Below, one piece after another: positions 6,530 to 62,927 of a DNA stretch of 64,000 bases. The translations under genes were made by a program, and so were the position numbers. Source of the DNA: Lingula anatina (taxonomy: Eukaryota > Animalia > Brachiopoda); contig CM120648.1 of NCBI GenBank assembly GCA_051362555.1, positions 4,832,587 through 4,896,586 on the forward strand. Direction: 5' to 3'. Position 1 is the first letter of the stretch. Every line of letters begins with the position of its first letter. The notes under the pieces are model-generated. The model saw nothing but the letters and a program-made list of their open reading frames with translations. It was not told the origin of the DNA and made no database searches.

Positions 6530-8160
6530 ACTAGAGGATCAGAGAGGCGATACCGCCTCCGGATATTGTACCACCAGCTGGAGTAAGTGCATTCGGATGG
6601 AAAACCAAAAAAAAAAAAAAAAGGGACACCACTATCAGTCTTGTGCTTGACAAGCTCTATAAAATGCAATAAAACAAGAGTCCTCAAAATGCACAAAGAA
6701 CATAACTGTAAAAATGGTCCAATCAAGTGGTTTTTCCAATTGACCTGTATTTTCCTAATATTGATCACTCCTGTGATTTTCTACACAATAGGCCTGTTAG
6801 TTTTCCTTGAAATGTGTCATCAGTGTTGCATATATGCTGACAAAAGAAAAAAACCTAGAGGCATCACTGGGCATATCTCTCTTAGTTTTGAAGATAAGAG
6901 GGGCAAGAAAATATGCAAAGTTCAGTTCATGATAAAAAAAGTAGATCAAAGGTCAATTTCAAGGTCAGTTTATGACTTCCTATTCAGGTTCAATACTAAC
7001 TATGGATATTTATTTTGCCAATTTTGGAGATATAAAGGCCAGAAAACATGCACAGTACAGTTCATCATAAAAAGTAGGTCCAAGGTCTTCCTATTTAAGT
7101 TCAATAGTAACTATGGGCGTATCTCTGCCAGTTTTCGAGATATAAGGGAAAGAAAATTTCCAAAGTTCAGTTCATGGTAAAAATAAGGTCAAAGGTCAAT
7201 TTCAGGATCACAGTAAGATTGCCAGAATATGACTCCTATTCAAATTCAATAGTAATTATGGCGTATCTTTGCCAGTTTTGGAGATATAAAGATCAGGAAA
7301 CTTGCAAAGGGCAGTTCATCATGAAAAGTAGGTCAAAGGTCAATTTCAAGGTCACAGATAGATTATCAGTATATGACTTCCTATTCAAGTTCAATAGTAA
7401 CTATGGGCATGTCTCTGCTGATTTTGGAGTATTTCACATTTTATTTTCACCACTGAATATTGGATGTTGAACTTTTTGATATAGTACAACGCCTACGCCG
7501 TATCGAAAACAAAAAAACGGAAACAACCTTCAGTGTTGCACTTGACAAGCTCTACAAAATGCAAAAAACAAGAGGTCTCTTGCTTTAACGGTTCCAGAAT
7601 TAGAGAGAGTTTTCAGTTTCAGCATCTACCGGCTGCTATTCCCGTGAAAATGCACGTGCAAACTCACGAAGATGAAAGATAACCCTAGGGCTAACACCTG
7701 CCCATAATAATATTGGTTAAATCTGTGTAGTTTCTGAAAATTGGCAAAAATAAAATATTTTTCACAAAAAATTCTCAATTTTAGAAAATTTTGGCCCGTT
7801 TGACCTTTAAATAAAGGTCAAAGGTCAAATCCAGGGGCATATTTGAAATCTCCACATATGACTTAAGGTCAGCCATCTGTAGAAATTTTTCCCATAATTC
7901 CTTCGGTTTGGGAGATATTTAGCATTGAATTTTCAAAAATTTTGACAAGGGTGCGTTTCAACAAGCGTCACGCCCAGGCCAATGCACCGACTGAGACAAA
8001 AAACCAGGGGGTTCAAGCTGAGATTATATGTGACCTAAATCCAAGAGATGGGGACACAGGTCCTTGCGGTCTAGGAGGAGAAGCGGTAACGGTGACTTGT
8101 ATCCCACGCCATTCTGCGGAGCCGCAGGAGCCGCAGGAGACTAAAACTAATAACTGTATT
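6530..8160. mobile_element. Non-autonomous DNA element with internal tandem core repeats (Helentron/HINE-like architecture; family not certain, ends approximate)
   Basis: About 4 diverged 110-145-bp units at ~6880-7430 (shared ...AGGTCAAAGGTCAATTTCAAGGTC...TTCCTATTCAAGTTCAATAGTAACTATGG...TTTTGGAGATATAA). They are bracketed by a ~50-bp direct repeat (CTTGACAAGCTCTAyAAAATGCAA..AAACAAGAG at ~6645 and ~7541). The element starts ACTAGAG after an A-rich run. No transposase or Rep ORF. Confidence 0.55.
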
Positions 8161-11100: not shown

Positions 11101-12997
11101 GATTGTTGACTCTTAGTTACCAAGCAAAGCTTTATAGTTTCGTTATCACCCATTTCCTCTTTCTTTTTCTATATGAAATCTATGTTTAGCAGCGGGTCTG
11201 CGATTCAAACTTCTGTAACAAAGTACAAACGCAGGCCCTGTCATCTCGTTCACATCCTTTTTTTGGTTTGATTTCCAGATTTTAAAATTTTAATTTTGTA
11301 CTGTACTGAGAGTGACTGTAAGATACACCTAGCGAAACCATTCACGTGTATCAAAGAGACGATCATCGGCTGCCTTTGATGAACACCAACTCATCATCAA
11401 CGGGTCACTCCCCGGGGAGCAGAACGTGCCTGCCGATGCGGGCGTTCATGGCTGTCTCTCCCAAGTCGTCCGTGGGAGCTAAAAAAGCCGTTTTTGTGTG
11501 TAAATACGCCAAGCGAAGCGGAGCAAAGCAATGGCCTACTGGCAACCTGCCCGCCTTCTCTCTCTCCCCTCTACCAACCAAGTACAATGCCCGCCGTGGC
11601 AGAGTAAATTCGCCTTTATGACATGTCTATAGCAAATACTGTGGAAGCTTCCACTTCTTCTTTAACTTATTGTAACTAGGCGGTAGCATTACCTTAAAGC
11701 ATTTGATAGTAAATGTTAGATGTAAACATTGAACAACTGACGGTTTCAAATTGTGGATATTCTCCTCTCTGTTCCTTAGGTGTCTTCTTGATGATTAATA
11801 CGGGTACAGCGCCGGTGGTCGTTGTACTATAAACAAAATGAAATCAAACCAAAAATGGAACTTTTTTATTATTAAATAGTAGTGTCATTTTCCCGTGCGA
11901 CTTATGCCGGTGGCCGCAATATTATCAGCAAAATAAGACCAAACAAAAATGGGATTTTTTTTAGAATTAAATAGTGGCGGAATTATCCCTTGAAATCCTA
12001 AACCTGATAAATAAGGGTAATTTTTTTACGCATAGAAGCTGTGGAAAGTTTGAACTTAAGTTGTCATTCCTTCCTTCATCGACACGTTCTTTCTGTCTGT
12101 GGATTAAAGCGACACCCAATAATGAAATTAATTGTTTTATCGCTGATGTAACAAATTTGGGTTTTCTATTTCTGGTTTGTATTTTTCTGGTTTATTGTGC
12201 CAATGTTATGTTGGTATCCCCTTAAACAACTGGGGGGGGGGGTCATGTCGTAGATTTCAGATATGTACAAACATTGCAAAAGTCTCTACTGACGTCTCTA
12301 TTATATTTACCATGCCACTAAGTATGGAGGAATACTCAAAACCAAATCAAAAATTTGAAGAATACGCATGCCTTTGGTGTCAATAACATTGTTTTCTAAA
12401 TATTTAGTTTGAAAAGGATCAACCGGTGTTTAAAAACAAAGAAATACTCCCGTCCGTAACTCGTCTATTTTTACCAGAACCATCCAGCGAAGAACGCCGA
12501 GTCGCTGAAAGCTTCCAGCGCAACCCCACCTGGATTTGCACGTGCAGAAACTCATTTGGCAGATTATTGACAACTTTGTTGACAAACACGCGTAAACAAA
12601 AGGTGCAAACACGAGGGGTAATACCGCCACGCGGAGGTGATTAGTACCCCTCTGTAATTATCTGCTTAAAACAGTTCGCACGTGCGCGTGAAAGCATTAA
12701 TGCCAAGAAGCAAAGCTCGCCGCGGCAGTTGGGTTTCTTAATGACGGAGAACCCTGCCTTTGTTGTTTACCTGTTACTAATCCGTCGTCACTTTTGGTCG
12801 ATTTGAGTCGTGAATATTTAGAAGTAATCAGGTAAAAAGGTGAGGATAGAAATCAGGCCAGGGCGACCCACAGGTGGAAGAGCCGTGTGTCCAAATATTT
12901 CAGATATTTAGAAAACAAGTGAACGAGAGAATTGTTCTACTTTTTATTAAGTTTCTTTCTTTGCCATGACATCACCAGGAAATCGTTATGTGAAGAG

Positions 12998-13278
12998 TGT
13001 AGTGATCCGGCATCGGTGTGTGGCTTGTCTTGGCCTCGATCCGAGTCGAGGCTGAGTGTCAGTTTGGGAGAAACTCGATAGCTGTAAGGAGTGGGTTACA
13101 GCGAGGAGCACTGAGAACAAAGGGCGACGCCATTACTGTGAAGCAAGATAGAGATAGAGGTTGGAATCCTGATTTCTAGTGGTTATCTATAGGAAAGGGA
13201 TTTCGTTACTGCTAAGGTAAGCAGATTATTAGTAGAAATATCCGGAGCTAGAGTTGATTAGCGTAAGGGATTTCTATA
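12998..13278 (+). repeat. 5' LTR (281 bp, TGTAG...CTATA)
   Basis: Matches 23345-23625 with no mismatch found by eye; immediately followed by the PBS. Confidence 0.96.
13214..13222 (+). promoter_or_regulatory. Candidate splice donor in LTR (AAG|GTAAGC, GT at 13217-13218)
   Basis: Near-consensus 5' splice site; would pair with the strong acceptor at 20668-20669 before ORF3. Confidence 0.6.
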
Positions 13279-13279
13279 T

Positions 13280-13290
13280 TGGTGGCAGCG
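13280..13290 (+). promoter_or_regulatory. Primer binding site, tRNA-Leu type
   Basis: TGGTGGCAGCG one base after the 5' LTR; complementary to the ...CGCUGCCACCA 3' end of eukaryotic tRNA-Leu. Confidence 0.85.
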
Positions 13291-13541
13291 AAAACAACGA
13301 GCCCACGTTGCTGAATAAAAGTTTAAAAACGAGTAGTTGTTTGTTTTTTCATACAAATAGCTGTTTTTCTAGTTTATTCAGCGGTTTGCTTAGGCAGACG
13401 TTACTGTTTTGTAGAAATTTTGCAAGTAACAATTAAATTGTGGGTGCATTATTTCTAGAGGGGGCTATATTTATATATTTTCAATAAAGATATATTTATA
13501 GTCGTTTGTGTTCTTCATTTTTATATATATTGATATTAAAT

Positions 13542-16025
13542 ATGGAGAATGTACATGTCATTAAAGTCAACTCGGCTGACGTTCAGGAGCTGTCACTAAT
13601 ACCGGGTGTTAGTGATAAAATAGCTGAAACTTTGGTGTCAGCGAGACAAAATGGTGGACAAATCACCAGGGAGTTATTGCAACTAATAACTCGTAAGAAG
13701 TTGACGGATGATGTGGTGGAGTTATTAGACTTTACTCCTAATACTACCCTCTCTACAGTACAGCAAGCCTCTGGAGGTAACACCAGCGCGGATCAGAAAA
13801 TGGTGTCACGGGAGCCCAGTAGTTCTTCGGGTTTCGGGATTGGGTGTTTATGGACTTCTACACCCATTCGGTCACCCTTGAGTGAGGTACCAAGGGCTGA
13901 CGAGAGGCGCATGGTCTCCACGCCTGTACAGACAGGAGAGGGGATGAGGGAAATGGTCTCCACTTCAGTGCAGACGGTGGTATCTACACAGACTGGAGAC
14001 AAGTCGGAGTTACATAGGAGGTATGTAAACCTGGAACAGGCAGGTGTTAACCAGGCACCTGGGGGGATTCCTGTGGGTTCCAGACAGGAATCTCGAGGGC
14101 CAGCTAGAAGGCCGTTGAGTAAAATTCCGTGGGGAATAACTCCTATTCCCGAGAATCCAGGGCATGGTGATGACACTGAAGTGAAAATTCCATTCACTCA
14201 GGATATGCGTATACCTGGAAGGAAGACAGAAACCAGCCAAGTGCGACAGGCTACTGTACACTGGAAAACAGAGCCAGTCCCAGCTTACACCCGAGGGAGT
14301 CATGAGAATTATGGTGCAATGTATCAGCCAGGTCCATTCACACAAGGCCAAAATGGACCGACTACTGGGGTCAGACATGTAACTTTGCAGCCAGGTGTGG
14401 TCACACGGGACCAGTGTGGACCGAGTCTTGCTTTTATGCAAGATGGGCAGCAGTCAGGTGGGTTCACACAACACCAGTGTGGATCGAATCTTGCTTTTAT
14501 GCAAGATGTGCATCAGCCAGGTGGGGTCACACGAGACCAGTATGGACCGAGCCTTGCTTGTGTGCAAGGCGGGCAGCAGCAAAGGGAGGTCACACGAGAC
14601 CAGTATGGACTGTACCGAGATGTCAGACCAACAGGGTGGCAGCCAGATCAGGTCACACTAGATCACTATGGACCGAGCCATGCTTATATGCATGGTGAAC
14701 AGCTGCCAGGTGAATTTACACTGAACCATGGTGGACCGAATCGTGAAAACTGTGGTCGGGGTCTAGAGCCATTCAGACAAGACTGGTTGAGACCGGACTA
14801 TGGTGAACCAGTACCAGTTACCGGTATCAGCACTCAAGGATATGACTGTGGGGGGCCATACCAGGCGCCAGTCATTTCTCAGAGGAGAGCTGATGTACCC
14901 TGGGAACCAGTTCCTACTAATGAGGCTTCTTACCCTATGGAAGTCGGAGGTAGAGGTGTCCAGGGAGGACATCGTGGTGTACAGGGAAGATATAGTGGTG
15001 TCAATGGAGGACACGATGGTGATCATAGGAGTCATGGTGGATGGGGATCTACAGTTAGCGCCCCAACACGGAAGTTTAACCCTCCAAAGAACTTAGTCTT
15101 TGATGGGCGTGGTAACTGGACTGCATTTAAGAGCTTATTTGTCAGACATGCAGTTCGTGAACAGTGGGATGATGCCTTGTCCCTCGATGGGTTATGTTGG
15201 TGCCTGCGGGGAAAAGCTCAGGATTACTATGCTATACTGAGTCAACGGGTAGGTGGCCTAACATACCAAGTGTTGCTGCATGAACTGGAGAAACGGTTCG
15301 GAGAGCGAGATACGCCAGCTACAGCACAGTCGCGTTTCCAGAGTTCAGTTCAGGAGTCTAATGAGTCGTTAGATGACTGGGCTGATCGTGTGTTAACTTT
15401 GGCAGGTCGTGCTTACGAGGGCTTGCCGGAATCATTCACTGATATGCAGGCGGTGAATCGATTTTGTGCTGGTTTATTGGACAAGGAAGCGGGGCATGCT
15501 ATTTATATGCGGAGTCCTCCAACTGTTCGTGAGGCAGTGCGTTTGGTGAGGATGCATCAGCAAATGTACCAGGTGATGGAACACACGGTGCCGAGGAGGG
15601 GTCGTCAGGGAAACCCGAGAGTAAATCAGGTAGCGACGGCCGAAATACCTCCAACACCTGAGATGTCCAGGTTGGTCCAGTGTATGGAGAACATGGAGAA
15701 ATCCATTAAATCTTTACAGCTGGATGCGAAAAAGAAAACACCTCCTAATCCGGATATGTCCAAGTGGGTCCAGCGAATGGAGAATATGGAGAAATCTATT
15801 AAGTCTCTACAACTGGATGCGAAAAAGAAGGCGATCGAGAAAAGTGGGTCGCCGAAGGCAGAAAATGGGTCCAAGTCTGAGAGTAGACCTATGGATGGGA
15901 CTTGTTTTAAATGCCGGGAAAAGGGACATTTTATCCGTGAGTGCCCGAGATGGGGAGATGCCTTGGAAAAGAGACAAGATAAGGTCTCAGGGGCGAAGCA
16001 GGGAAACGCCAAGGGGTCGAGGTAG
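13542..16025 (+). CDS. gag: Gag polyprotein with N-terminal helix-hairpin-helix (ComEA/HHH_3-like) domain, repeats, capsid-like region and CCHC knuckle
   Basis: First ATG at 13542 (the ORF track starts at an upstream TTG). KVNSADVQELSLIPGVSDKIAETLVSARQNGG is HhH-like. FDGRGNWTAFKSLF...WDD...LRGKA...LEKRFG...QESNESLDDWADRV...RFCAGL is typical retrotransposon capsid. CFKCREKGHFIREC at 15903-15944. Confidence 0.93.
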   Translation: MENVHVIKVNSADVQELSLIPGVSDKIAETLVSARQNGGQITRELLQLITRKKLTDDVVELLDFTPNTTLSTVQQASGGNTSADQKMVSREPSSSSGFGIGCLWTSTPIRSPLSEVPRADERRMVSTPVQTGEGMREMVSTSVQTVVSTQTGDKSELHRRYVNLEQAGVNQAPGGIPVGSRQESRGPARRPLSKIPWGITPIPENPGHGDDTEVKIPFTQDMRIPGRKTETSQVRQATVHWKTEPVPAYTRGSHENYGAMYQPGPFTQGQNGPTTGVRHVTLQPGVVTRDQCGPSLAFMQDGQQSGGFTQHQCGSNLAFMQDVHQPGGVTRDQYGPSLACVQGGQQQREVTRDQYGLYRDVRPTGWQPDQVTLDHYGPSHAYMHGEQLPGEFTLNHGGPNRENCGRGLEPFRQDWLRPDYGEPVPVTGISTQGYDCGGPYQAPVISQRRADVPWEPVPTNEASYPMEVGGRGVQGGHRGVQGRYSGVNGGHDGDHRSHGGWGSTVSAPTRKFNPPKNLVFDGRGNWTAFKSLFVRHAVREQWDDALSLDGLCWCLRGKAQDYYAILSQRVGGLTYQVLLHELEKRFGERDTPATAQSRFQSSVQESNESLDDWADRVLTLAGRAYEGLPESFTDMQAVNRFCAGLLDKEAGHAIYMRSPPTVREAVRLVRMHQQMYQVMEHTVPRRGRQGNPRVNQVATAEIPPTPEMSRLVQCMENMEKSIKSLQLDAKKKTPPNPDMSKWVQRMENMEKSIKSLQLDAKKKAIEKSGSPKAENGSKSESRPMDGTCFKCREKGHFIRECPRWGDALEKRQDKVSGAKQGNAKGSR

Positions 16026-19000
16026 GGGGCCTATCCTCGATCCGAGATGACGCTAGGTCAGACGTCAAAGAAACTGATGATAAGGCCCGAGAAAAAGGAT
16101 CTGAAGCAGAAAAGAACAAACCTGAACCAGAGGTGGTATATGTGAATCAGATTGGATCCGTATCCGACTACTCTTTAAAAATCAGAGTAGGTGATAAAAC
16201 AGTGAGGGCATTAGTGGATACCGGTGCTCGTGTCACCATTTTATCTGACAGTATCTACAATAGCTTGAAAAATCCGCCGAGAAAATTAAAGGATGTGCAG
16301 TTGTGGGCTGCAGGGCGGAAGATGGCTATGCCGGGTTTTATCGCAGGTCCGATAAAATTAAAAATTGGACACAAGTGGTATACGGAAACAGTATACGTGG
16401 CTCCTTTGGAGGAAGAGATGTTGCTGGGAGTCGACATATTGAGAGATCGGGGTCAAGCCATGATTGATGTTGGAAGAGGGATTCTGCACTTCGATGACAT
16501 GAGTTTAACGTTGGACTGTTGCCTGGAGAAGGGTGTTCCCCAGGTAGCACGCGTTATGGTGTCAGAGCGCCGGGTAATTCCTCCTAACTCTGTAGTCAGA
16601 GTGGCATGTAAAATGGATATGGACCTCGATGATTATGTCATAGAGCCAGTGGAGAGGGGCGCGTGTAATTTCTTGGTTCCAAGGGTTATACGTAATAGGG
16701 GGAGTGACCCTATTATGGTGCTGATTAACCCAAGTGACAGGTATAAGCTGCTACAGAAGGGGTCAGAAATTGGGAGGGCTTTTTCTTATGAAAAAGTCGT
16801 GACGTCTGGACAAGCGTTTGACGAACATGTGCAATGTGGTTCAGTTTCGACTGAGTCGAGGGTGTCTAGTACGACATCGAGTCAAACTGAAGAGGATGTG
16901 GTGAGAGTAAATTACTCTATTCCTGCACCGCGGAGGCCTAAGGTGAGACCAGCCGAAGGCGAGGGTGAAGAAAGGCCAGGGGTTCCTCCACATTTACAGA
17001 AGGTGTTCGAGGAATCGAGTACAGAGTTGAGCGAGGACCAGCAAGCTCAACTGGGTCAAGTACTGACCGAGTTTCAAGATGTGTTTGCCCAAAGTGAGTT
17101 TGACTTAGGTAATTTTACTGCCTTAGAACATACTATTGACACGGGGCAAGCGAGGCCGATCAAGCAGAGGATGCGGCGTACACCAGTGTGTTTTGCTAAT
17201 GAGGAGGAGGCTCATCTGCAGAAAATGATCCAAGCAGGGGTAATACAAGAATCCACATCGGATTGGGCGTCAGCGCCGGTGTTAATTCGTAAAAAAGATG
17301 GTAGCGTTCGTTACTGCATTGACTACCGTGCCTTGAATGAAGTTACCACTAAGGATGTATTCCCACTGCCACTGGTGGACAATTGTTTGGATACCTTGTC
17401 GGGTAGCGTTTTCTTTAGTAAGTTGGATGCAAACTCAGCTTATTGGCAGGTACCCATTCGAGAGGAGGATAGAAAGAAGACCGCGTTCATAACAAAGTAT
17501 GGATTGTATGAACACATTCGCATGGCGTTTGGTCTTTGTGGGGCACCAGCTACCTATGCCAGAATTATGAATTTGGTCTTTCGAGGTTTATCATGGAAGA
17601 CGGTGCTGGCGTTTCTGGACGATATAGTGGTGCTGGGTGCGAGTTTCGAGATTCATCTGCAGAATCTGCGTGAGGCTCTAATGAGGTTTAGAGCGTATGG
17701 GCTAAAGTTAAAGCCGAAGAAGTGTTCTTTCTTCCAAAGAAAGATCGAGTTTCTAGGTCGAGTAGTGACTGGGGACACCTTAGCCATGTCGGAGCATGAT
17801 ATCCAGGTGGTCAGAGATTGGCCGATGCCAACATGTGGAAAGGATGTCGAGAAATTTATGGGCCTAGCAAACTACCACAGGACGTTTATCAAGGACTTTT
17901 CCAAACTCGCTGCTCCACTATATGCCATGACTGGTAAGAACAATTTTCAGTGGGGTGAGGAGCAATCTGTGTCATTTAGATCACTGAAGGAAGCATTAAC
18001 TTCACCACCAGTGTTGGCTATTCCGAGGCAGGATGGCGAGTATATTTTGGACACAGATGCGAGCGAGTATGCCATTGGAGCAGAGCTGCTTCAGGTACAA
18101 GATGGCGAGGAAAAAGTTGTAGCTTACGGAAGCTACGGCCTCACGAAAGAGCAGAGGCGGTATTGTACAACACGTAAAGAGCTGCTTGCTGTTGTACGTT
18201 TCACCAGGCAGTATAGACACTATCTCCTGGGGAGGCCATTCATGGTGAGAACCGACCATTCAAGCTTGCGTTGGTTAATGAGGTTCAAGGAGCCGCAGGG
18301 TCAGTTGGCGCGATGGTTAGAGGAGCTGTCGCAGTTCAACATGGTTCTATCACATCGGGCAGGGCGACTTCATGCAAACGCGGATGCACTGTCAAGAGCT
18401 GGACACACGGGGCAGTGTTTAACGTTTGGGACAGGAGTACACCTTGGAGATCTACCCTGTGGAGGATGTGAATATTGTAAGCGTGCTCACTCAAACTGGG
18501 CCAGGTTTGAGGAGGAGGTTGATGATGTGGTGCCATTGGTGATCCGAGGGGAAAACCAGGGGGGTACCAGGAGCGTCGAAAGCGAAGAAACCTCAAGTGA
18601 CCGACAGAGTAACAGTGGCAAGACGGTAAACACTGTTATGGTTGACTCAGTGAGGCAGTTTTCAGAACCGGAGGTATTGGGGCCAGTGGTAGATACCTCG
18701 CCTGATGAAAAGGTGGAAGACATGCCTGAGTACCATATGTTGAGAGAGGTGATCGAGAATATCCCATGGGACCCAGGAAAATCGGTCCGAGTTAATGTGA
18801 TCACCACTCGTCAGCAGGCTAAAAAGATGAAAAGAACGCCTGAAGTGGGCTCTACTGGTGTAGAGTCGAGTTCAAAAGAAGTGGGCTCTACTGGCGTAGA
18901 GTCGAGATCAACTAAAGTGGACTCTAAGGATATAGAGTCGAGACCAGCTGCAGTGGGCTCTAATAGTACAGAGTCGAGGTCAACTGTGAAGGCTGAGAGT

Positions 19001-20557
19001 AAGAGTACCTCAGGGCTGCGCAGTTGGGGGTATTCAGTGGAAGAAGTGAAAGCGGCACAGAAAGCAGATCACGATGTGAATCTGATTAGGGAGTATGTGG
19101 ACAACGCCATTATTCCAAATCAGTCTACTCTATTCAGAGGGAGCAAGGAATTAAAGTCTTATTGGCTGGATAGAGAGATGTTTGTAATGATTGATGGTGT
19201 ACTGTATTGGTCAGATCCGAAGACTGACGATAAGAAGTTAGTGCTTCCACATGGATTGCGAGTTAAGGCAATCGAGTTACACCACTGTTTACCATCAGCA
19301 GGACATCAGGGAGTCTCTAGGACTAAAGAGAGACTTCGAGAACGTTTTTATTGGCACAAGTTAGGCCGAGATGTGGATAACTTTGTGCGAGGCTGCGCAA
19401 GTTGCAATCAAAATAAAAAGTCGGCAAGACATGGCCGGGGTGCTTTAACCGAGTTCCAGGCTGGAGAACCTATGGAACGTGTACACTTGGATTTTCTGGG
19501 TCCTCTACCGAAGAGCACCAGGGGAAATGAGTACATACTCATGATGGTTGACCAGTTTACCAAGTGGGTGGAGTGCATCCCGCTTCCATCGCAGTCTGCT
19601 GAGGAGACAGCGCAGGCGGCAGTCGAACAGTTTTTCTCACGGTTCGGGGTACCGTTTGAAATATACACGGATCAAGGAAGAAATTTTGATTCGAAGCTGT
19701 TCACTGAGGTGTGTAGGATATTGGAGATCCATAAAGCACGGACGACACCCTATCGCCCATCTTCCAATGGTCAGATTGAGAGGTACAATCGGACATTGAT
19801 GGACGCAGTGCGTTGCTTTACAGAGAGATCTCAAAACCAGTGGGATCTTCATCTACAGCAAATTGCCGGGGCTCTCAGGTCATCGGTCAACAGGATGACA
19901 GGTTTTACGGCTAACAAGCTGATGTTGGGCAGGGAAGTCAACACTCCTGCTGGAATAATGTTCCCACAGAAGGGAAGAGAGCCGAGTAGTACCGAGGGGT
20001 ATGTGGCTGAGTTAGAAGCCGACCTACAGAAGGCGCACGAGACTGCCCGAGGTAAGCTCAAAGTATCTTCTAAGCGTATGAAGCGGGATTACGACCTGAG
20101 GATTTTGGAGCGAACCTATGCGGTCGGGGATTCAGTTTACATACTGGATGCGGCCGGAGGCCGGGGGAAGTGTAAGAAACTATGTCCCCCGTGGAAGGGT
20201 CCGGGAGTCATCGTGGAGAGGCTGAGCTCGTATTTATACCGGGTGAAGGTAAGAAATGCGGTGTTCGTGGCCAATCATGACAGGTTAAAACCTTGTCGAG
20301 ACAGTGAGATACCTCTGTGGATCCAGCAATGGAGAAAAAATCCCGTGGTTGACTCTACAGTCAAAGGGGATGACAGAGTGTATTGTCGCTGTAGGCAGAA
20401 ATGGCAGGGCCGATTCATGATACAGTGCGATTATTGTAGTGAATGGTATCATGGGTCTTGTGTAAACATTACTGCGTCTGACGCCCTCTCGATAAAGAAG
20501 TACAAGTGTGAGGATTGCACACGTCGATTGGTGCGTCCGGGCCATAATCGTGTATAG
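15983..20557 (+). CDS. pol: Pol: aspartic protease - reverse transcriptase - RNase H - integrase - PHD finger (translated as Gag-Pol)
   Basis: ALVDTGA (D at 16217); RT WASAPVLIRKKDGSVRYCIDYRALN, KLDANSAYWQ, MAFGL, FLDD (17612-17623); RNase H LDTDAS...ELLAV...TDH...NADALSR; integrase H..GH..CASC zinc finger and LDFLGP/TDQG/GQIER core; C-terminal C4HC3 PHD at 20378-20518. Confidence 0.97.
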   Translation, partial: GLRGEAGKRQGVEVGGLSSIRDDARSDVKETDDKAREKGSEAEKNKPEPEVVYVNQIGSVSDYSLKIRVGDKTVRALVDTGARVTILSDSIYNSLKNPPRKLKDVQLWAAGRKMAMPGFIAGPIKLKIGHKWYTETVYVAPLEEEMLLGVDILRDRGQAMIDVGRGILHFDDMSLTLDCCLEKGVPQVARVMVSERRVIPPNSVVRVACKMDMDLDDYVIEPVERGACNFLVPRVIRNRGSDPIMVLINPSDRYKLLQKGSEIGRAFSYEKVVTSGQAFDEHVQCGSVSTESRVSSTTSSQTEEDVVRVNYSIPAPRRPKVRPAEGEGEERPGVPPHLQKVFEESSTELSEDQQAQLGQVLTEFQDVFAQSEFDLGNFTALEHTIDTGQARPIKQRMRRTPVCFANEEEAHLQKMIQAGVIQESTSDWASAPVLIRKKDGSVRYCIDYRALNEVTTKDVFPLPLVDNCLDTLSGSVFFSKLDANSAYWQVPIREEDRKKTAFITKYGLYEHIRMAFGLCGAPATYARIMNLVFRGLSWKTVLAFLDDIVVLGASFEIHLQNLREALMRFRAYGLKLKPKKCSFFQRKIEFLGRVVTGDTLAMSEHDIQVVRDWPMPTCGKDVEKFMGLANYHRTFIKDFSKLAAPLYAMTGKNNFQWGEEQSVSFRSLKEALTSPPVLAIPRQDGEYILDTDASEYAIGAELLQVQDGEEKVVAYGSYGLTKEQRRYCTTRKELLAVVRFTRQYRHYLLGRPFMVRTDHSSLRWLMRFKEPQGQLARWLEELSQFNMVLSHRAGRLHANADALSRAGHTGQCLTFGTGVHLGDLPCGGCEYCKRAHSNWARFEEEVDDVVPLVIRGENQGGTRSVESEETSSDRQSNSGKTVNTVMVDSVRQFSEPEVLGPVVDTSPDEKVEDMPEYHMLREVIENIPWDPGKSVRVNVITTRQQAKKMKRTPEVGSTGVESSSKEVGSTGVESRSTKVDSKDIESRPAAVGSNSTESRSTVKAESKSTSGLRSWGYSVEEVKAAQKADHDVNLIREYVDNAIIPNQSTLFRGSKELKSYWLDREMFVMIDGVLYWSDPKTDDKKLVLPHGLRVKAIELHHCLPSAGHQGVSRTKERLRERFYWHKLGRDVDNFVRGCASCNQNKKSARHGRGALTEFQAGEPMERVHLDFLGPLPKSTRGNEYILMMVDQFTKWVECIPLPSQSAEETAQAAVEQFFSRFGVPFEIYTDQGRNFDSKLFTEVCRILEIHKARTTPYRPSSNGQIERYNRTLMDAVRCFTERSQNQWDLHLQQIAGALRSSVNRMTGFTANKLMLGREVNTPAGIMFPQKGREPSSTEGYVAELEADLQKAHETARGKLKVSSKRMKRDYDLRILERTYAVGDSVYILDAAGGRGKCKKLCPPWKGPGVIVERLSSYLYRVKVRNAVFVANHDRLKPCRDSEIPLWIQQWRKNPVVDSTVKGDDRVYCRCRQKWQGRFMIQCDYCSEWYHGSCVNITASDALSIKKYKCEDCTRRLVRPGHNRV
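16001..16043 (+). promoter_or_regulatory. -1 programmed ribosomal frameshift signal (gag-pol)
   Basis: G_GGA_AAC heptamer in gag phase at 16001-16007, then a 6-nt spacer and a hairpin GGGTCGAGGTAGG/ggg/CCTATCCTCGATCC (16014-16043). The pol frame is -1 and open from 15983 (TAA at 15980-15982). Confidence 0.88.
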
Positions 20558-20635
20558 ATTAAGGTCGAGTAGAGGGTTAAGGTTGAGTGGAGATAAGAGT
20601 TTAATTAGCTAAGAGTTTAGCTTAAGTCAAATAAC

Positions 20636-20669
20636 TCTTACTCAAAATTCTTCTCTTTTTTCTTTTTAG
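20636..20669 (+). promoter_or_regulatory. Candidate 3' splice acceptor for ORF3
   Basis: CTTAC branch-point-like motif, then a pyrimidine tract TTCTTCTCTTTTTTCTTTTT and AG immediately before ATG 20670. The tract stands out in an otherwise purine-rich strand. Confidence 0.75.
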
Positions 20670-23072
20670 ATGGAAGAGCAGAAGTGGCTTAACCTTATTA
20701 AGCCGATCCAAGAGGCCTGCAAGGAGAAGAGGCTCCACCCAAGCCGGGAGTTGGTAAATGTGATTGCCAGCCGACCCATGGCCTTGCAGGGGGATGCTGA
20801 GGCACTGTTGCTGAAGCAGGTGGCACTCTCTAGGGAGAGAGATGCGGAGGCTTGGCGCAAAGATTGTGCCAAGGGCCTGTTGGCTGTAGGTTTTCAATCC
20901 TGCAGTTGGGTATGTGAGCATGTTGCCAGGGTTGCCACTCCCAGAAAAGGGAAGGGTACTCGAGAGGCGTGGCATGCCACATATCGAGATTTCCGATTGC
21001 AAGAGGATCCTACTATGGAGCATAGGAAGGATACAGTGACTCAGAGCACTGTGGTAAGAGGAAGTCCTGAAGCAGCAGTGCGAGGGGAGAGTGAGGAGTC
21101 GGGGTCAGTATCAGACAGCATACTGAGGACTCCCACTGAGTCAATGGAGGTGGACACACCTTCGAGTCCGGTGAGGAAGTCACCGAGGGCTACCCTTACC
21201 AGCTGGGGTAGTGAAATGGACTTGTGTGAAAAGATAACCTATGCTGAGGCGGTCAAGAAACCAAGTCCGAGTGGTGTGGTAGTGACACAGAGTCGAGACA
21301 AGTCAAGTAAGACTGGGGGCTCTTACCAACCACGGCCTAAGAGTCGAGTATGGTTAGTAAAGAAGACCAAGGACTCAACAACAAGGCAGGATGCACCTCC
21401 TAAGGGACCTTCAAAATTCACCAAGAAGGATGAGGAAAAAAGGTGTTTCCGATGTAAGAAAGTAGGGCATGTGGCTCGGAAGTGTCCAACTCTGTCCGAG
21501 GAAGAAAGGTGCTTCAGATGTTCAGAGCTGGGGCACATAGTCAAAGATTGCCCACTTTCAAGGAAAGCGGCCAAGGACAGGAAAGAAGTGTCTAAGGCGA
21601 GACGAGATGACTCCAGGGGGAGTTCATCGGGCAGGCGTGATGACTCCAGGGGGAGTTCATCCTATAAACCTGCGACAAGTGGTCTCGAGGAGCTGGGTAC
21701 ATGGGCCCATGCTAAGAGATCGAGGCAGAGTAGTAGCTCCAGTCATGGAGGAGTTACTAGTGCCGTGGCCACAGGAATTAGTGCGCCGAGTCCTGACTTG
21801 TGTCCTATTTTTGGATGCAATAGTCAGTTAACGGAGAAACACGCATGGAACAAACATATCCCTCCAGTGTTTCATCCCGTGTTCGACGGTAAGGGGATGG
21901 AAAAGAGAAGATTTTTGGCCCTTAATCTTCTAGCCACCCAGCTATTTGGAATGAACGCAAATATGGACAGGTTATGTCAAGCCTGCGATGTCATGGACCA
22001 GGGAGATCGGGAGATAGCTCCGAGTAGGAAAGAGGGTGTGGACAGCTTCATCCACGGCCTGGGGTTGTCAGGCGAGTATGCCCTCAGAGTGGGATCTCTC
22101 CTGTTGTGGAAGCCTTTGCTAAGCCTAATAGCGAAATTATGGCCGTCAGACCTGGAGGCGTATAGGAACACATGTTCCATAGAAGAGGAGGAAGAGCTGT
22201 CTATTCCTAAGCCTCCAGTAGGATACGACAGTCACTGTCACGTAGATCGTGTACGCCAGCACTTGGAGTTACCAACAACAGCTGGGTTACGGGAGGTCAT
22301 CGAGGCCAAGCAGGTGGATGACAAGGAGATAACAGTGTCAGGGGCCACTGTTATATTCTGCGACCCAGCAACCTACCCAAGTGCTGAGGAGGTGGCTACT
22401 CTGAAGGCAGAGGGAGCCGTGGTGTCTGTGGGTTGGCACCCCAGACACGAGTTTGACCCAGAGGGCTGGGCGAAGTTTGAACAGACAGTAAGCAACCCAG
22501 AGGTGTCTGTTCTGGGTGAGATTGGTGTAGATTACACTACCTCATCGTGGCAGTGGGAAGCTCAGTTTGAAGTCCTGGAAAGAGCTCTTACATTATTAAG
22601 AGAAGACCAGGTACTGGTGCTCCACTGTCGAGGGCCCAAGGATGACTCAGCTGGTGATTTGGTTTGGAGACATGTTTTGAACATTCTTCGATTAGCTGAG
22701 AATGTGAAAAGTGATCAGTTAATACACTGTCACTGTTTCACGGGGTCAAGGAGGATGGTAGAGAAGTGGGTACAGTATTTTCCCAATACTTACTTTGGAG
22801 CTACTGCCATCTTCAGGACGTATACGGATACGTCGAGGAGTAGGAGAGCGATAGAGATGTTACAGTGGATGCCTGCTGGCAGGTTATTGCTGGAAACTGA
22901 TGCCCCCTACTTCGGATTTCCGACAAGGAGTAAGTCCACTCCAGCTTTCCTGGGGAAAGTAGCGGAAGTCGTTGCAAAAATTCGTGGGTGTGACTGGGAA
23001 GATATTCTCAAGATCACCGAGGAGAATGGGCGTCGGTTATATCTAGACCGACTGGGGCCCAGTGTGGAGTAA
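20670..23072 (+). CDS. ORF3: 800-aa protein with 2x CCHC zinc knuckles, a C2H2-like motif and a C-terminal TatD-family deoxyribonuclease
   Basis: CFRCKKVGHVARKC and CFRCSELGHIVKDC (21444-21551); CPIFGC...HAWNKH. TatD motifs in order: DSHCH (from 22221), VGWHP, GEIGVDY, VLHCR, HCFTG, LLETDAPY, EN..RLY. No signal peptide or TM segment seen. Confidence 0.92.
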   Translation: MEEQKWLNLIKPIQEACKEKRLHPSRELVNVIASRPMALQGDAEALLLKQVALSRERDAEAWRKDCAKGLLAVGFQSCSWVCEHVARVATPRKGKGTREAWHATYRDFRLQEDPTMEHRKDTVTQSTVVRGSPEAAVRGESEESGSVSDSILRTPTESMEVDTPSSPVRKSPRATLTSWGSEMDLCEKITYAEAVKKPSPSGVVVTQSRDKSSKTGGSYQPRPKSRVWLVKKTKDSTTRQDAPPKGPSKFTKKDEEKRCFRCKKVGHVARKCPTLSEEERCFRCSELGHIVKDCPLSRKAAKDRKEVSKARRDDSRGSSSGRRDDSRGSSSYKPATSGLEELGTWAHAKRSRQSSSSSHGGVTSAVATGISAPSPDLCPIFGCNSQLTEKHAWNKHIPPVFHPVFDGKGMEKRRFLALNLLATQLFGMNANMDRLCQACDVMDQGDREIAPSRKEGVDSFIHGLGLSGEYALRVGSLLLWKPLLSLIAKLWPSDLEAYRNTCSIEEEEELSIPKPPVGYDSHCHVDRVRQHLELPTTAGLREVIEAKQVDDKEITVSGATVIFCDPATYPSAEEVATLKAEGAVVSVGWHPRHEFDPEGWAKFEQTVSNPEVSVLGEIGVDYTTSSWQWEAQFEVLERALTLLREDQVLVLHCRGPKDDSAGDLVWRHVLNILRLAENVKSDQLIHCHCFTGSRRMVEKWVQYFPNTYFGATAIFRTYTDTSRSRRAIEMLQWMPAGRLLLETDAPYFGFPTRSKSTPAFLGKVAEVVAKIRGCDWEDILKITEENGRRLYLDRLGPSVE

Positions 23073-23330
23073 GAATACCACGACGCTGGCCAGGAGGGGT
23101 ACGACCTGGTCAGGAGAAGAGGCTGGGAAGGAGTTTTCCTAGTGATGAGTACCGTGTATTGATTCCTTGGCTGGTCAGCTTGGGCTGATCGAGAAGCGAC
23201 AAGGGATCTGGTAGAGAGAATGGAGTGGGCGGTCCTTGGCTGGGTCAGCATGGGCTGATCGAGTAGTGATACAAGGATCGTAAGAATGTGTTGTTGGTGT
23301 TGGATTGTAATGACTACCTCCAATCCAGAT

Positions 23331-23344
23331 AAAGTGGGGAGGAG
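23331..23344 (+). promoter_or_regulatory. Polypurine tract
   Basis: AAAGTGGGGAGGAG directly abutting the 3' LTR. Confidence 0.85.
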
Positions 23345-23625
23345 TGTAGTGATCCGGCATCGGTGTGTGGCTTGTCTTGGCCTCGATCCGAGTCGAGGCT
23401 GAGTGTCAGTTTGGGAGAAACTCGATAGCTGTAAGGAGTGGGTTACAGCGAGGAGCACTGAGAACAAAGGGCGACGCCATTACTGTGAAGCAAGATAGAG
23501 ATAGAGGTTGGAATCCTGATTTCTAGTGGTTATCTATAGGAAAGGGATTTCGTTACTGCTAAGGTAAGCAGATTATTAGTAGAAATATCCGGAGCTAGAG
23601 TTGATTAGCGTAAGGGATTTCTATA
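23345..23625 (+). repeat. 3' LTR (281 bp)
   Basis: Copy of 12998-13278; followed by TSD AGAG. Confidence 0.96.
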
Positions 23626-25001
23626 AGAGGAAATGCGTTTATCATATTATTGCTCCTGAAGACGGCAATACGTTTTATAATGTTTTTGTTATCCTTTTTC
23701 GGAGTCAGTACCCGGGCCTGTGCTATCTATGATGTCTCTAGACTAATTCCAGGATTAAACTGAAATGAAATTTATTGTCCTAGAGGAAATATGGAGCAGC
23801 AATATTGAAGTCAGAACTAAGTAGAGATAAGTGATAAGGTGTCGGTTTTCTGGATAAATGATAGAAAAATTATTAAAGAATTTATTGTTGATAGCAACAA
23901 GGAGTTGTATCATAAACCTCCTTGATAAAAACATAAGAAAAGGTTAACAAGTGCACGGAAGGCAGCAACAATTCTTTATTTAATATAATATGTTGCCGCC
24001 TTTTGAAAATTGGAAAAAAATCTATAACCATGGATTTGTGAGAAGAAAAAGCACAGAATTTAATCTCCACACCACTCCCAAACCTAAATAACCTACATCG
24101 AAGACATTTATGCTAACAGGGTCTGCTTCAAATTAGATCCCAACCGAAATGTTTTGTCTTCTTAGACTTTTCGCAATTCAATTCAGTATAATGTCTTTAT
24201 TAAATTTGATTCATTGGCACCTCCTGTTCCCTAAGCCGGGCTGCATGCACGGTATAATAGATGGCACGCGGTCCACGCGAGGCAAATCTCCTCGTGCCGG
24301 GAAACGGGTAGACGCCGGGCCCATATTGCGAGGAAATTTGTTCAAAAATTGAGATAACGTTAAGCCCATTGGACGCTGGCATTCTTTGGGTTCTAAATCA
24401 ATCTTTATGGAGCCATCGTGATATCTTCGAAGGGTAATCCCTTCATTCTTTCTCGAGACTTTTTGTGTAGATTTATAACGGGTATCAAGGCAATTAGCGC
24501 CCCGCCTGCCCTCATGGATGATGCATTTATCTATCCATGTGTCTGGCCCCTCTATCTGGCAAAGGCCTTCAATGAGGCACATGCATAATGATACGCCATA
24601 ATGTCAATTTAAATAATATCAGTATAAGCAAAATCGCAAGAGGTAAGCTTTAAAACAAATTTCTCATGATTGTTATATATTTATCATTCCCCGAAATGTG
24701 CCATCCACCGCATCGCATTCTCTGAGCCAGATGTATGTGTATTCATACAACAGACCAGTTTTAGGCACAGAGTGGGCGGTATTGACAACAGCCATGCCCT
24801 GTATGTGTATATTTCAAAGCAATAGATAATACGCACAAACGTTCCCTCGTCTCCCTGTATCTCGGAATGCGTTATCGTGGTTCACGCCATGTTTGACAAA
24901 AACCTGGAGTAAAACATCTAATAACCACGCGAAGAGAGCAAATTCAGATTGTAAAGCGGTTCTACTTAACCGCTGACCAACTGCCCTGGAATGTTCGAAT
25001 G

Positions 25002-26248: not shown

Positions 26249-27051
26249 TCACCATGGTCTCCACATTCTGTCATTTCTGTTGAGCTCAGCGTTTACAAAA
26301 CTATGTCCATTGTTGTTTCCATCAACTTTACAAAAGTTTGTCAGTGGCGCCAAACCAGATTCAACTGTTGTCTGCTTCTGCTGCTGAGCGGGACTGAGCT
26401 GGTGCATTGTGGGAATGTTCAAGACGGTGGGAGAAGTCGTCTGCAACTGTTGTTGTCCCTGCTGCTGCTGCACGTTCGGTGATGTTTGCAAAACGATGGG
26501 CATGGCAGTGACATTATTTACTGGGCTTATAACATTGGATTGCTGTTGTAGCAACTGTCCATTTTGAATTTGGCTGGGGCTTTGCAGAATATATGCCACC
26601 TGTCCATTTGGAAGCGTGCCTGGAATGAGTTGGAATGATCCAGTGATGTTCGACTGAACTAGTCCATTTTGAGGGCATGAGACGGTAGGCTGTTGCTGAG
26701 TTTGCTGTGGTTGACATGGCAACATACTCGGCGTCGTCACGGTGGTAAACTGGGAAGCGCTTGGAATCTGAACGTGGATTGGCTGGAGAGTTTGCGGTTG
26801 TGGTTGCTGCGGCGCTGCTATTGTCTGTGGAGCTGTGATCGTCTGCTGCACGGTTGACGCAGACGATGACGTCTCTGATGGCGTGACTTGGTTGACTTTG
26901 TATGCGCAGGAGGCGAGGTGGTTCAGGAGGTGCAGGCGGACGTCCTCGTTAATTCCGTCAATAGAACGCATGTAACGCGTCACCTCGTTGGCACATTCAT
27001 TGAAGCCCGCTCTATACTTTCCTAGCACGCTTGGGTCACTGGTGACAGCAG
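26249..27051 (-). CDS. Hes: Hes-A exon 4 (Orange domain, Q/P/S/T-rich tail, WRPW)
   Basis: cag| acceptor at 27054-27052, phase 1; AAVTSDPSVLGKYRAGFNECANEVTRYM...LLNHLASC; ends MWRPW-TGA. Confidence 0.96.
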
Positions 27052-27249
27052 CTGAAGAAGATAAACAAAACAACATAAGAAAAAAATCCTCAAGCCAAAA
27101 TTCAAAAAGACAACACTGTCACATAAACTAGTAGACATATTCAAATGTAGTACCAAATTGCATAAATCACCGAACAAGTTTGCTAATTGAAATATAAGCA
27201 TAATGTAAATTTGGTTGATTAACGACACATTTTGACTATATTCTCTTAC

Positions 27250-27337
27250 CTGCCATTTGTTGTCTTTGAATGCTTCTCAGATGTTTCACCGTCATTTCTA
27301 AAATGTCTGCTTTCTCCAACTTGGAATACCGAGACGT
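27250..27337 (-). CDS. Hes: Hes-A exon 3 (bHLH helix 2)
   Basis: [29 protein letters not shown]; 88 nt with cag/GTAAGA boundaries. Confidence 0.96.
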
Positions 27338-27542
27338 CTGTAAAAACAAAGAAATAAAACATAAACACAAACCCAAAACATAAAAATATGAAAAAATGTA
27401 CTCGACAGTAGTTGGAAAATTCAGTAACGATCAACGAATACATTGAACAGTAGTCAACGAATGCCCTTTTAACAAAAAACATCCCGAAAGAAATTAATCT
27501 CAACCGACTGCGTGTTGTCGTGTTGTGTTGTCACTCGTTAAG

Positions 27543-27638
27543 TTGACCCCAGCGCCCCCTCGCGTCTGCTGGCGCGTGTCCTGCTAGTGACCCGTTGCGA
27601 AAGTTAAAGCATCGTCTGCTTCGAGAGCGTGGGAACGA
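27543..27638. promoter_or_regulatory. Conserved intron-2 module of Hes-A
   Basis: TGACCC, CGTCTGCTnGCGCGTG, GTGACCCGT and GAGCGTGGGAACG occur in the same order as at 52624-52718. Confidence 0.7.
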
Positions 27639-27972
27639 ACCGCATTAAAGCAACCTAAGGAATTTTCAGTCACGTGCTGGCCACACTTTGTCAAATTTCA
27701 TTAATTCTAACTTTAAGAAGTGGTTAGTTGAATAAAGATACATTGTTCTCCAAACTTAATCAGAGTTGTCGTCTGCAATCAAAGCTTGTCGTCTCCCGAA
27801 TTGCGTTTTTTTTTCTAACCCCGAGGTTTTACTTTTTAAGACGTCTCATTTTACAGCAAATTTTCGCTGTCTCAATAACTTTCTAAGTTTGTTTAGTTTT
27901 CAAGTCGGAAAATGTTTATTCTAAACTATCGGGTGGCTTCAATTTGTGTCGTATATAAAGAGGGATACTTAC

Positions 27973-28068
27973 ATCTCTTTGCATTGCCTGCAGCACAAGG
28001 GCTTTCAACTCTGTTAAACATTCATTAATTCTTTGACGTCTGCGTTTTTCCATCAAAGGTTTGTTAGT
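27973..28068 (-). CDS. Hes: Hes-A exon 2 (basic region/helix 1)
   Basis: TNKPLMEKRRRQRINECLTELKALVLQAMQRD; 96 nt; hairy-type proline in the basic region; cag/GTAAGT. Confidence 0.96.
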
Positions 28069-28223
28069 CTGCAAAAGATAAAATGTAACATTTAAAATAC
28101 AACAAAATTTCAATATGTACATAAGAAGTTTCTTTCAGTCACAACAAATCATCATTGCTGCAAGTGTTTAAAAGTAAACAAAATATCATAATATGAAAAC
28201 AAGTATTAAAATATCAAACTTAC

Positions 28224-28277
28224 CCTGCGAGCATGAGAAGCCGAGGATGAAAGTAAAGTTGAGCCTTTTTCAGCCAT
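28224..28277 (-). CDS. Hes: Hes-A exon 1 coding part (spliced protein 346 aa)
   Basis: ATG..MAEKGSTLLSSSASHARR|GTAAGT; 54 nt, same length as the Hes-B exon. The four exons sum to 1041 nt, in frame. Confidence 0.9.
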
Positions 28278-28379: not shown

Positions 28380-28790
28380 GTGTGGGAAAATGTGAACTTA
28401 ACCAAGATCTTATACTCACCGTCTGTCGGTATGTGCTGCGATTTCGATACAACCAACCAATCAGAGGCCTTGAAACCACTTCATGCGGCGACGTCGCGTG
28501 GCAAAGGCAATCTGATTGGTTCACACCACCGAACCAGCTGTCAATCACCGTCTCGAGAGGCGCACTAATAATTGCGTACACGCGACCTGTCTTTGTGTGA
28601 GTGTGTGGGAAAACCCCGCCCCCTCGAGTCCCAAGCCTGCTCTGTCAACATGGGCAAGGGTGATAAAGCATAATAAAGCATACCGACACACAAAAGAAGG
28701 TAGAGAGGCCCGCGACTGAACACGACACACGCACACCCATGCTTTTGTGTGCTGAGATCGTAATCTCCCGTTCAAACCGTGGGAAAGTGG
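28380..28790 (-). promoter_or_regulatory. Hes-A promoter
   Basis: TATAAG (28414-28409); CSL/Su(H) sites YGTGGGAA (28381, ~28604, ~28778); two CCAAT boxes; TGATTGACAG (28538-28547); CACGCG (28579-28584); GC box. Collinear with the Hes-B promoter. Confidence 0.8.
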
Positions 28791-50583: not shown

Positions 50584-51365
50584 TTACCACGGCCGCCACA
50601 TATTTCTTTCCTTTTCTGTGACTCCCAGAGAAAATGGTTTTTGGTCTTTCATAACGTAAGGGCTTAGAGTTTGAGATACAGCGACTGGCGGCTCGCTGGC
50701 GGGTGCGGGACTGCGGTTGTGTGCTGCGGGACATGCGACATTTACACTGTAGATTCCCGCGTTGTTTTGACATGTCGTCTGGTAATTCTGAGAAGGCACC
50801 AGCACTGGAAGACTGGAAGACGAAACTGAAATAGCGTTTGTTAAGTGTCCATTTGCAACTGTAGGCGTAATTGGTGCCTTAGAAATAGTGTCATTATTGT
50901 TATTCGTTGCAGGGGTTGAGAAGTTTGGACTATGGAGAATGTAAGCCACTTGTCCATTTGGTAGCGTGCTTGGAATGACCTGGATGGTCCCAGCGAAGTT
51001 TGAAGTCGACTGTGGAGACGATAATGTCTTCTGTTGTTGTTGTTGTTGCTGCTGCTGAATGTTGTTGAAGTTCTGGAATGGTAGACTGTGAGGGGTGATC
51101 ACGGTGTTGACATTGGGGATCTGGACGGAGATGGGCTGCTGCGTTGGTGTACCCATGGGAGGAGAGCAGGCTTTGGGTGGGGGTGGCACGTTCTCGTTCT
51201 GCTGATTGACCCTCTGCGTGCACGTGGCCAGGTGGTTAAGGAGTCTTAGCCGGACGTCTTCCTCGAGACCGTCGATAGAGCGAAGATAGCGTGAGACTTC
51301 CCCAGCGCACTCGTTAAAGCCAGCGCGGTACTTGCTCAGCACACTAGGATCGTTGGCTACTGCAG
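50584..51365 (-). CDS. Hes: Hes-B exon 4 (Orange domain, poly-Q, WRPW)
   Basis: cag| at 51368-51366; AAVANDPSVLSKYRAGFNECAGEVSRYL...LLNHLATC; ends MWRPW-TAA. Confidence 0.96.
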
Positions 51366-52225
51366 CTGTAACGAAAAGGAATAACGGAATTTAAAATCGA
51401 TTTAAAAAGTGAATTTTTGCTCTTGTCTAACCTCCAATAGCGTTAAACTATAATTAAGAAATATTATATACATTCTCAAGCAAAAAATAGAATTGTGAAC
51501 AAAACGGTATAATGAAATTTAACCTATGGCAGTTGGCCGCCGAGTTGACAATACATCCACAAAGGGCGTTTTTTATTATCTCTCTCAAGTACCAGAGATA
51601 AAATATCTTGGCATCTAATCGGTCAAATATTTTTTCTCTTTTTTCATTTCACTCCAAAACATCTGTGTTAGCAAAACACATGTGTGATTCATCACCATCC
51701 TTTTCATGTGTTGTTTAAAACAATAGCTGGGCGCACAGCTGTGCCTACAACAGGCGGTTGCCGCGATGAAGATTGCTCATCGCTATCTCCCCATTGTCTC
51801 TCGAGTTCTTCTATTACAAAGGAAGCGAGGTAGGCGAGTAACTGTTAGATTCACCGGGAGAACCACCTTGTAATATGCCAACTGCCAGCCTCAAGTATTC
51901 AAACAAGCTGTCACGTTTAACTGCCCTGTGCCAAGATGGTTTAACTATTACATTGTTCACAGTTCCAGATTGGCTTGATTTAGAACCTTTAATCGAACTT
52001 AGATCTGAGGCTCTGCTACCCCACGCACTCTTTCCATTGTGTACCAGATGAGGAAAGGTGTCTTTATTTAGAAGCCAGTTTACATTATTTATCACCTCCA
52101 CCAGTTTACATTATTTATCATCTCTCCCTCCCACGCCAAAATCTTGGTTTGAATGCAATGCAAGTGCTAAGATCTTGAGTTTCAAAACAAGAACATTTTT
52201 CATGATAATCATTTAAACTATTTAC

Positions 52226-52313
52226 CTGTCATTTGCTGGCGCTGCACTGTTCTTAAGTGTTTCACTGTCATCTCCAAAATGTCCGCCTTTTCTAACTTTG
52301 AATACCGTGATGT
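52226..52313 (-). CDS. Hes: Hes-B exon 3
   Basis: [29 protein letters not shown]; 88 nt; cag/GTAAAT. Confidence 0.96.

Positions 52314-62309: not shown

Positions 62310-62353
<44 letters not shown>

Positions 62354-62597: not shown

Positions 62598-62640
<43 letters not shown>

Positions 62641-62884: not shown

Positions 62885-62927
<43 letters not shown>

Follow-up and report, generated by a model that had tools for sequence, protein, structure and literature searches.

Chromoviruses are Ty3/gypsy retrotransposons that carry a chromodomain at the C-terminus of their integrase (Gao et al. 2008, as cited in PMC6673714), and PHD fingers are encoded by numerous retrotransposons (PMC6673714). In CopiaMBD of arthropods, a host-type chromatin reader was taken up by an animal long terminal repeat (LTR) element and is proposed to steer insertion (PMC6673714); together with chromoviruses, this provides a precedent for an LTR element being guided by a reader domain. 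Here we describe an intact 10.6-kb Ty3/gypsy element from the brachiopod Lingula anatina (positions 12998–23625, + strand, of a stretch of 64,000 nucleotides, hereafter the window: GenBank assembly GCA_051362555.1, contig CM120648.1, positions 4,832,587 to 4,896,586 of the forward strand), in which a PHD finger predicted to read methylated lysine 4 of histone H3 (methyl-H3K4) closes the integrase and a third open reading frame (ORF3) encodes a TatD domain. CopiaMBD differs from it in being a Copia element with a methyl-CpG reader that points to methylated repeats, binding having been tested in that case (PMC6673714). Gypsy-7a_cRei of Chlamydomonas, which has a PHD finger in its Gag-Pol, and other PHD-bearing algal transposable elements resemble it in combining a Gypsy polyprotein with a PHD finger, which is proposed there to limit harmful insertions; Gypsy-7a_cRei differs in being algal and in having the finger, according to a figure legend, between RNase H and integrase rather than after integrase, and the passages describing it mention no TatD ORF (PMC9940879). 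In five Chlamys families the PHD finger lies within the reverse transcriptase (RT) or the endonuclease (PMC8557442). Ginger1-9_HM likewise has a DDE integrase that contains a GPY/F module and is followed C-terminally by a PHD finger, but it is a DNA transposon with Ulp1 and a PHD finger after its Gypsy-like integrase, and is one family of those tabulated (PMC2836005).

The finger is encoded at positions 20378–20518 (+; Pol residues 1466–1512), in frame with protease, RT and RNase H as well as integrase, and the pol stop codon (20555–20557) follows 12 codons later. The original prediction had described a complete C4HC3 finger here, and all eight zinc ligands are indeed present (C1468, C1470, C1482, C1485, H1490, C1493, C1509 and C1512), with the Pfam PHD family (PF00628) scoring 31.2 bits in whole Pol and 36.1 bits in its last 175 residues against a cut-off of 24. 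The three residues it had assigned to a cage for trimethylated H3K4 (H3K4me3) are likewise in place, as Y1467 (20381), M1479 (20417) and W1488 (20444). Two acidic residues that may help to form a groove for H3 R2 and the H3 N-terminus, D1483 (20429) and E1487, are present here and conserved in relatives, but the finger as a whole carries a net charge of +2. Membership in the PHF2/PHF8/DIDO1/CFP1/BPTF class of readers was borne out by sequence, by fold and by a cage kept in about 110 relatives. The best sequence matches in the PDB were Cfp1 (2e-14), PHF8 (3e-13) and PHF2 (3e-12), followed by KDM7A, DIDO, BPTF and PPS; identity to the best solved fingers is 40–48%, and the cage positions align with those of solved readers. 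A model of the 65-residue Pol tail reached a predicted local distance difference test score (pLDDT) of 85–94 over residues 11–50, and Foldseek matched the finger model to BPTF, KDM7A, PHF2, DIDO, PPS and AL1 with template modelling scores of around 0.7 and root-mean-square deviations of 0.9–2.6 Å, the partners including H3K4me3-bound structures of BPTF, PHF2, DIDO, PPS and AL1. The finger shares its fold and cage positions with the host readers Cfp1/Spp1, PHF2/PHF8/KDM7A, DIDO/PPS and BPTF, its own binding being predicted; its 47 residues do not single out one donor gene. Loss of the Met weakens binding by TAF3 more than 100-fold (PMC8246079), and readers of unmodified H3 have no cage (PMC10124903). 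Judged by its residues, the finger very probably binds methyl-H3K4.

The same finger recurs across a large family. A search with integrase plus finger returned 541 proteins, and among the 120 listed plus the query the strict PHD pattern is found in 109/121. Named relatives among the matches listed come from Nucella, Ostrea, Pinctada, Haliotis, Gigantopelta and Lytechinus, and relatives labelled as bacterial (Thiodiazotropha, Sedimenticola) would be host DNA in symbiont assemblies. A second search used RT–RNase H only, so that the finger was not selected for. Its 120 matches comprised 8 distant (<60% identity) and 112 close relatives, and 36 of the close ones, which stop short of a full integrase C-terminal domain, were set aside. 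The finger is present in 71 of the 76 close relatives that extend beyond the integrase end; three of the other five break off within the first residues of the finger, one is marked partial and one ends shortly past the domain, and none of the 76 shows a clean natural loss. In every intact relative the finger lies at the integrase C-terminus. Some families number 100–150 members on megabase contigs.

Within the alignment, the cage Met is kept in 112/114 rows, the Trp in 111/114, Tyr/Phe in 112/115 and an Asp or Glu after the third cysteine in 107/115, while zinc ligands are kept in 109–112 of 113–115 rows and the linker has a mean top-residue share of 0.38. All eight ligands occur in 107 of the 110 rows that cover both integrase core and finger, and the Y/F-M-W set is whole in 104/107. 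Across the aligned rows, conservation of the cage about equals that of the zinc ligands, while the linker drifts. Identity in the finger also correlates with identity in the integrase core (Spearman rho 0.30, 0/500 permutations), as expected of one old capture. The Pol of one relative (P0094) is annotated with RT, integrase and PHD and, next to these, an RNA 2'-phosphotransferase domain (PF01885).

According to the original prediction, the PHD finger takes the place of a chromodomain. This stands as a description of position at the integrase end, but not as a replacement, which would take a chromovirus origin of the lineage. Chromo families gave no match at E ≤ 10 to the last 175 residues of Pol, and PF00385 is annotated in none of the 120 integrase-selected matches listed. 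The RT is 39% identical to that of the sole chromodomain-bearing match among the RT-selected relatives, and a quick RT tree of 38 rows, with long branches and only this one chromodomain-bearing row, set the element apart from it. Like chromoviruses, the element has the Ty3/gypsy domain order and a methyl-lysine reader, in its case a predicted one, fused past the integrase C-terminal domain; unlike them, it has a PHD finger rather than a chromodomain, and the predicted mark is that of active chromatin, H3K4me3, rather than heterochromatin.

These features suggest a scheme in which Gag-Pol would be produced by a −1 frameshift and the protease would free an integrase with the finger still attached, joined through a variable and flexible linker of around 20 residues (pLDDT is low at model residues 308–316, in the linker). 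Several fingers of an intasome would engage H3K4me3 (or me2) tails through avidity, tethering the integration complex to nucleosomes of active promoters or enhancers, and strand transfer nearby would give the 4-bp duplication. The cage is kept family-wide and binding therefore matters, although where binding acts does not follow from this. If the finger does bind methyl-H3K4, it is rather likely to bias insertion sites, and we incline by a little to the view that it steers integration toward the chromatin of active promoters and enhancers.

Several observations weigh against such steering, some concerning the finger and others the insertion site. Host-type PHD rows were included in the alignment behind the finger model, so the fold match leans toward host PHDs and is a weak extra check. 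This copy's finger has a net charge of +2, with a family median of −2, and canonical readers of this class are acidic (PMC10124903). Relatives vary at the second aromatic position (W1474 in this copy), with Asp in 56/116; TAF3 apparently also has Asp at this position (PMC8246079). Atypical PHD ligands reuse the same groove, as H4K16ac does in MLL4 PHD6 (PMC10124903), and the title of one structure places a VRK1 peptide in PHF2. As for the site, the element and its neighbour, a hairy/Enhancer of split (HES) gene, lie tail to tail, with 2.6 kb from the end of the 3' LTR (23625) to the HES stop codon and around 4.8 kb to the HES promoter. Around the empty site, CpG density falls on the window's 52nd percentile, CpG being uninformative as a promoter proxy because the whole window is undepleted. 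The original prediction had taken a distance of 2.6 kb from a developmental gene as consistent with targeting; the figure is right, but it is measured to the stop codon rather than to the promoter, and a single site 3' of HES with median CpG does not support targeting. Finally, Gypsy-7a_cRei, the one PHD-bearing Gypsy whose new insertions have been mapped, shows a 2.6-fold enrichment of them between genes, and the passages concerned report no bias toward promoters (PMC9940879).

The finger might instead bind methyl-H3K4 without any choice of site, holding the pre-integration complex on chromatin (for nuclear retention or through division) or retaining Gag-Pol or integrase at the active LTR of the element itself, with insertions near random. 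Cage conservation speaks for binding and not for its place of action, this copy is not at a promoter, and a non-integration role has been raised for the analogous methyl-CpG-binding domain (PMC6673714). The invariable position of the finger at the integrase C-terminus, from which chromoviruses tether, argues the other way, and we regard this account as unlikely though far from negligible. A little less probable is steering to the edges of active domains, to distal enhancers or to germline H3K4me domains, which would leave copies intergenic and spare coding sequence. The intergenic preference of Gypsy-7a (PMC9940879) is consistent with this, as is the intergenic position of our copy beside a dense cluster of basic helix–loop–helix (bHLH)-type sites, a possible enhancer; against it, this is one site and the motif set was selected after looking, and fingers of this class bind lower methylation states much more weakly (PMC10124903). 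That the ligand is something other than methyl-H3K4, such as a different mark on histones or the methylated tail of a non-histone protein (a host cofactor or element protein), seems to us improbable: the reuse of the groove and the positive charge described above would allow it, but the finger carries the whole set of residues that marks the closest solved H3K4me3 complexes, Y-M-W with an acidic residue past the third cysteine. A functionless chance capture or a gene-model fusion can be set aside with hardly any reservation, given the single open frame in the DNA, the finger in 71/76 relatives and a cage that is kept against a drifting linker.

The element carrying the finger has LTRs, primer-binding site, polypurine tract, target-site duplication, gag, and pol in the order protease–RT–RNase H–integrase. 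Its two 281-bp LTRs (12998–13278, TG...TA, and 23345–23625, both +) have the same letters. The 4-bp target-site duplication AGAG adjoins the 5' LTR at 12994–12997 (+), and its right copy lies at 23626–23629 (+). The primer-binding site at 13280–13290 (+) is presumably tRNA-Leu-like; no tRNA gene for comparison with it lies within the 64-kb window. We retrieved 52 related loci, most of them short or collapsed and with little flanking sequence; three (L001, L020 and L032) have longer matches to the primer-binding motif. The gag ORF (13542–16025, +) encodes an N-terminal helix-hairpin-helix, tandem repeats of 63 bp and 93 bp, a Retrotrans_gag domain and one CCHC knuckle. The helix-hairpin-helix (13542–13710, +) matches the ComEA-like HHH_3 family with 28.6 bits against a cut-off of 27, and is also matched in five related loci (L001, L004, L009, L013 and L021).

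The pol ORF (15983–20557, +; protease, RT, RNase H, integrase and PHD) runs for 1,524 codons with no internal stop and lies in the −1 frame relative to gag, with a slippery heptamer (16001–16007, +) in the gag/pol overlap that points to frameshifting. The integrase has an H2C2 motif, the catalytic residues D1170, D1230 and E1266, and a C-terminal beta domain, and its predicted model matches the PFV and Ty3 integrases. This C-terminal domain (20108–20323, +; GPY/F-type, SH3-like, with a short helix) has its strands in the structure model; the MLVIN_C and Integrase_p58_C families matched it weakly, under cut-off. A polypurine-tract-like stretch (23325–23344, +) lies immediately 5' of the 3' LTR.

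In 4/4 DNA runs, from up to four studies, the site was empty, a contig crossing directly from left flank to right flank, and the insertion is therefore recent and polymorphic. In three of the runs, LTR contigs had 8–14 times the flank depth, suggestive of a handful of copies in each genome, a rough figure as depth is no true copy number. Where 5' junctions of other copies were displayed, in a few cases, AG stands right before the LTR, as it does here (23343–23345), which may reflect a target-site preference or a display bias. Flanks of other copies, a few stretches of 30 bases that were in part mixed, were left out of account.

ORF3 (20670–23072, +; 800 amino acids) encodes two CCHC knuckles (21441–21554) and a TatD domain (22227–23042; PF01026, 132 bits against a cut-off of 27). 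Alignment to YcfH places seven TatD residues at H522, H524, E617, H652, H688, E742 and D744, all kept in ORF3; we take these HxH, E, H, H and E-x-D positions to be the metal and catalytic residues. All seven are found in 70/72 aligned rows, host-type proteins included. On these residues the TatD domain of ORF3 appears catalytically complete and is a predicted nuclease. Our guess, guided by activities known from TatD proteins, is that an active ORF3 nuclease would serve the replication cycle by processing cDNA ends or abasic sites, or by clearing RNA:DNA. ORF3 is identical to the Lingula anatina record LOC106158303, and a TatD match lies 3' of the finger in 16 of the 19 related loci that have at least 2.5 kb downstream; a pattern search of the longest ORF downstream in each of those 19 loci gave no CCHC knuckles. 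In a FastTree analysis of 48/72 rows, the element ORF3s formed their own branch (support 98), apart from 27/28 named animal proteins (97), and ORF3 did not group with cellular TATDN2 proteins. As the element TatDs branch apart from the host TATDN2 type, the capture is old. In spiders, several TATDN2-like genes stand in tandem on one contig (the P0151 cluster).

A splice-acceptor-like pyrimidine tract with TAG (20640–20669, +) abuts the ORF3 ATG, and the 5' LTR holds a candidate donor by sequence, AAG/GTAAGC (+), with which an intron would start at 13217. Counting elements whose ORF3 starts close behind pol, and excluding two loci with a broken ORF3, a pyrimidine-rich YAG precedes the ORF3 ATG in 6/9 elements, compared with 94/1813 other ATGs (5%). 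From 6–26% of each of four RNA runs, 53, 9, 56 and 12 reads fell on 11 kb; the joint between donor and acceptor was absent among those reads, at a depth too low to count for or against splicing. ORF3 is probably expressed from a spliced RNA, a weaker step of the scheme than those concerning the finger. In one RNA run (X18), four reads with three different starts join the end of pol (20549) to the 3' untranslated region (23084) with non-canonical ends, skipping ORF3; this joint is probably that of a related copy that has lost ORF3 and kept the finger.

The neighbouring HES gene (26249–28277, −), beyond whose 3' end the element lies, has four exons encoding bHLH, Orange and WRPW, with its ATG at 28277, its stop at 26249 and a TATA-like box near 28414. 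It has a tandem paralogue (50584–53916, −) with the same exon layout and a TATA-like box as well, and the two have in common a 52-bp upstream block with a Su(H)-type site (28570–28621 and 54153–54204). Motifs of bHLH type (E-box, class C and N-box) are most densely clustered in the window at 12450–12700, with 6 per 250 bp, the next best having 3 and the mean being 0.39; as a hint in favour of steering this is post hoc and a single site, the motif set having been picked after inspection. The cluster, 300–550 bp left of the insertion, may be a distal enhancer of the HES pair. Elsewhere in the window, a 287-bp unit is present in three near-identical tandem copies (62310–63181), and diverged repeats of 110–144 bp with AAAGGTCAA motifs (6936–7852) could be a satellite or else an old mobile element.

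An enzymatic ORF in the env position is also found in the bdelloid elements Juno and Vesta, whose ORF3s encode a DEDDy exonuclease, of the 3'–5' type, or a GDSL esterase and are made from spliced RNA; they differ in having DEDDy rather than a TatD TIM-barrel, in belonging to a separate lineage and in lacking the coupling with an integrase PHD (PMC5408684). A survey of mollusc LTR elements names the Gypsy clades MolGy1-16, C-clade and CsRN1, and the terms PHD and TatD are absent from its main text (PMC6238403), as they are from a review (PMC6431247); another paper has PHD in a reference only (PMC4255032), and the main text of the Gypsy-DNMT3 paper does not contain the term. A Gypsy group named Selgy was considered as a bearer of PHD fingers and rejected, the papers listed for it being on plant classification. 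The full-text literature searched yielded no account of an animal Gypsy lineage whose integrase terminates in a PHD finger, nor of one with a TatD ORF; the search stopped short of subscription journals and supplements and of Repbase, GyDB and Dfam, the last three of which may already annotate these families. PHD fingers in transposons are already known, and an animal lineage that combines an integrase-terminal PHD finger with a TatD ORF is apparently undescribed in that literature. Kapitonov and Jurka reportedly noted in 2003 a PHD finger in ORF1 of CR1, a non-LTR element.

Our boldest reading, offered tentatively and as one we hold to be somewhat short of an even chance, is of a large and still active Ty3/gypsy lineage in brachiopods, molluscs and echinoderms that mirrors the chromoviruses: its integrase itself, unaided by a host tether, reads H3K4me3 and aims at active promoters and enhancers, with a catalytically complete TatD in the env slot and a DNA-binding helix-hairpin-helix in Gag. 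It includes the claim, held jointly at the same tentative strength, that this accessory kit of three (PHD integrase, TatD and Gag helix-hairpin-helix) is undescribed for any LTR element. The LTR elements known to favour active chromatin use host tethers, as MLV does BET proteins, Tf1 Sap1 and HIV LEDGF, whereas the chromodomain, which is the known reader of the built-in kind, directs elements to heterochromatin. An H3K4me3 reader within the element itself would, if true, be a third targeting strategy beside these two. With the TatD ORF, the few kinds of enzymatic third ORF gain another nuclease class, which hints at a step of the replication cycle that has gone unrecognized. If the reading holds, it would bear on regulatory mutation in shellfish and in sea urchins.

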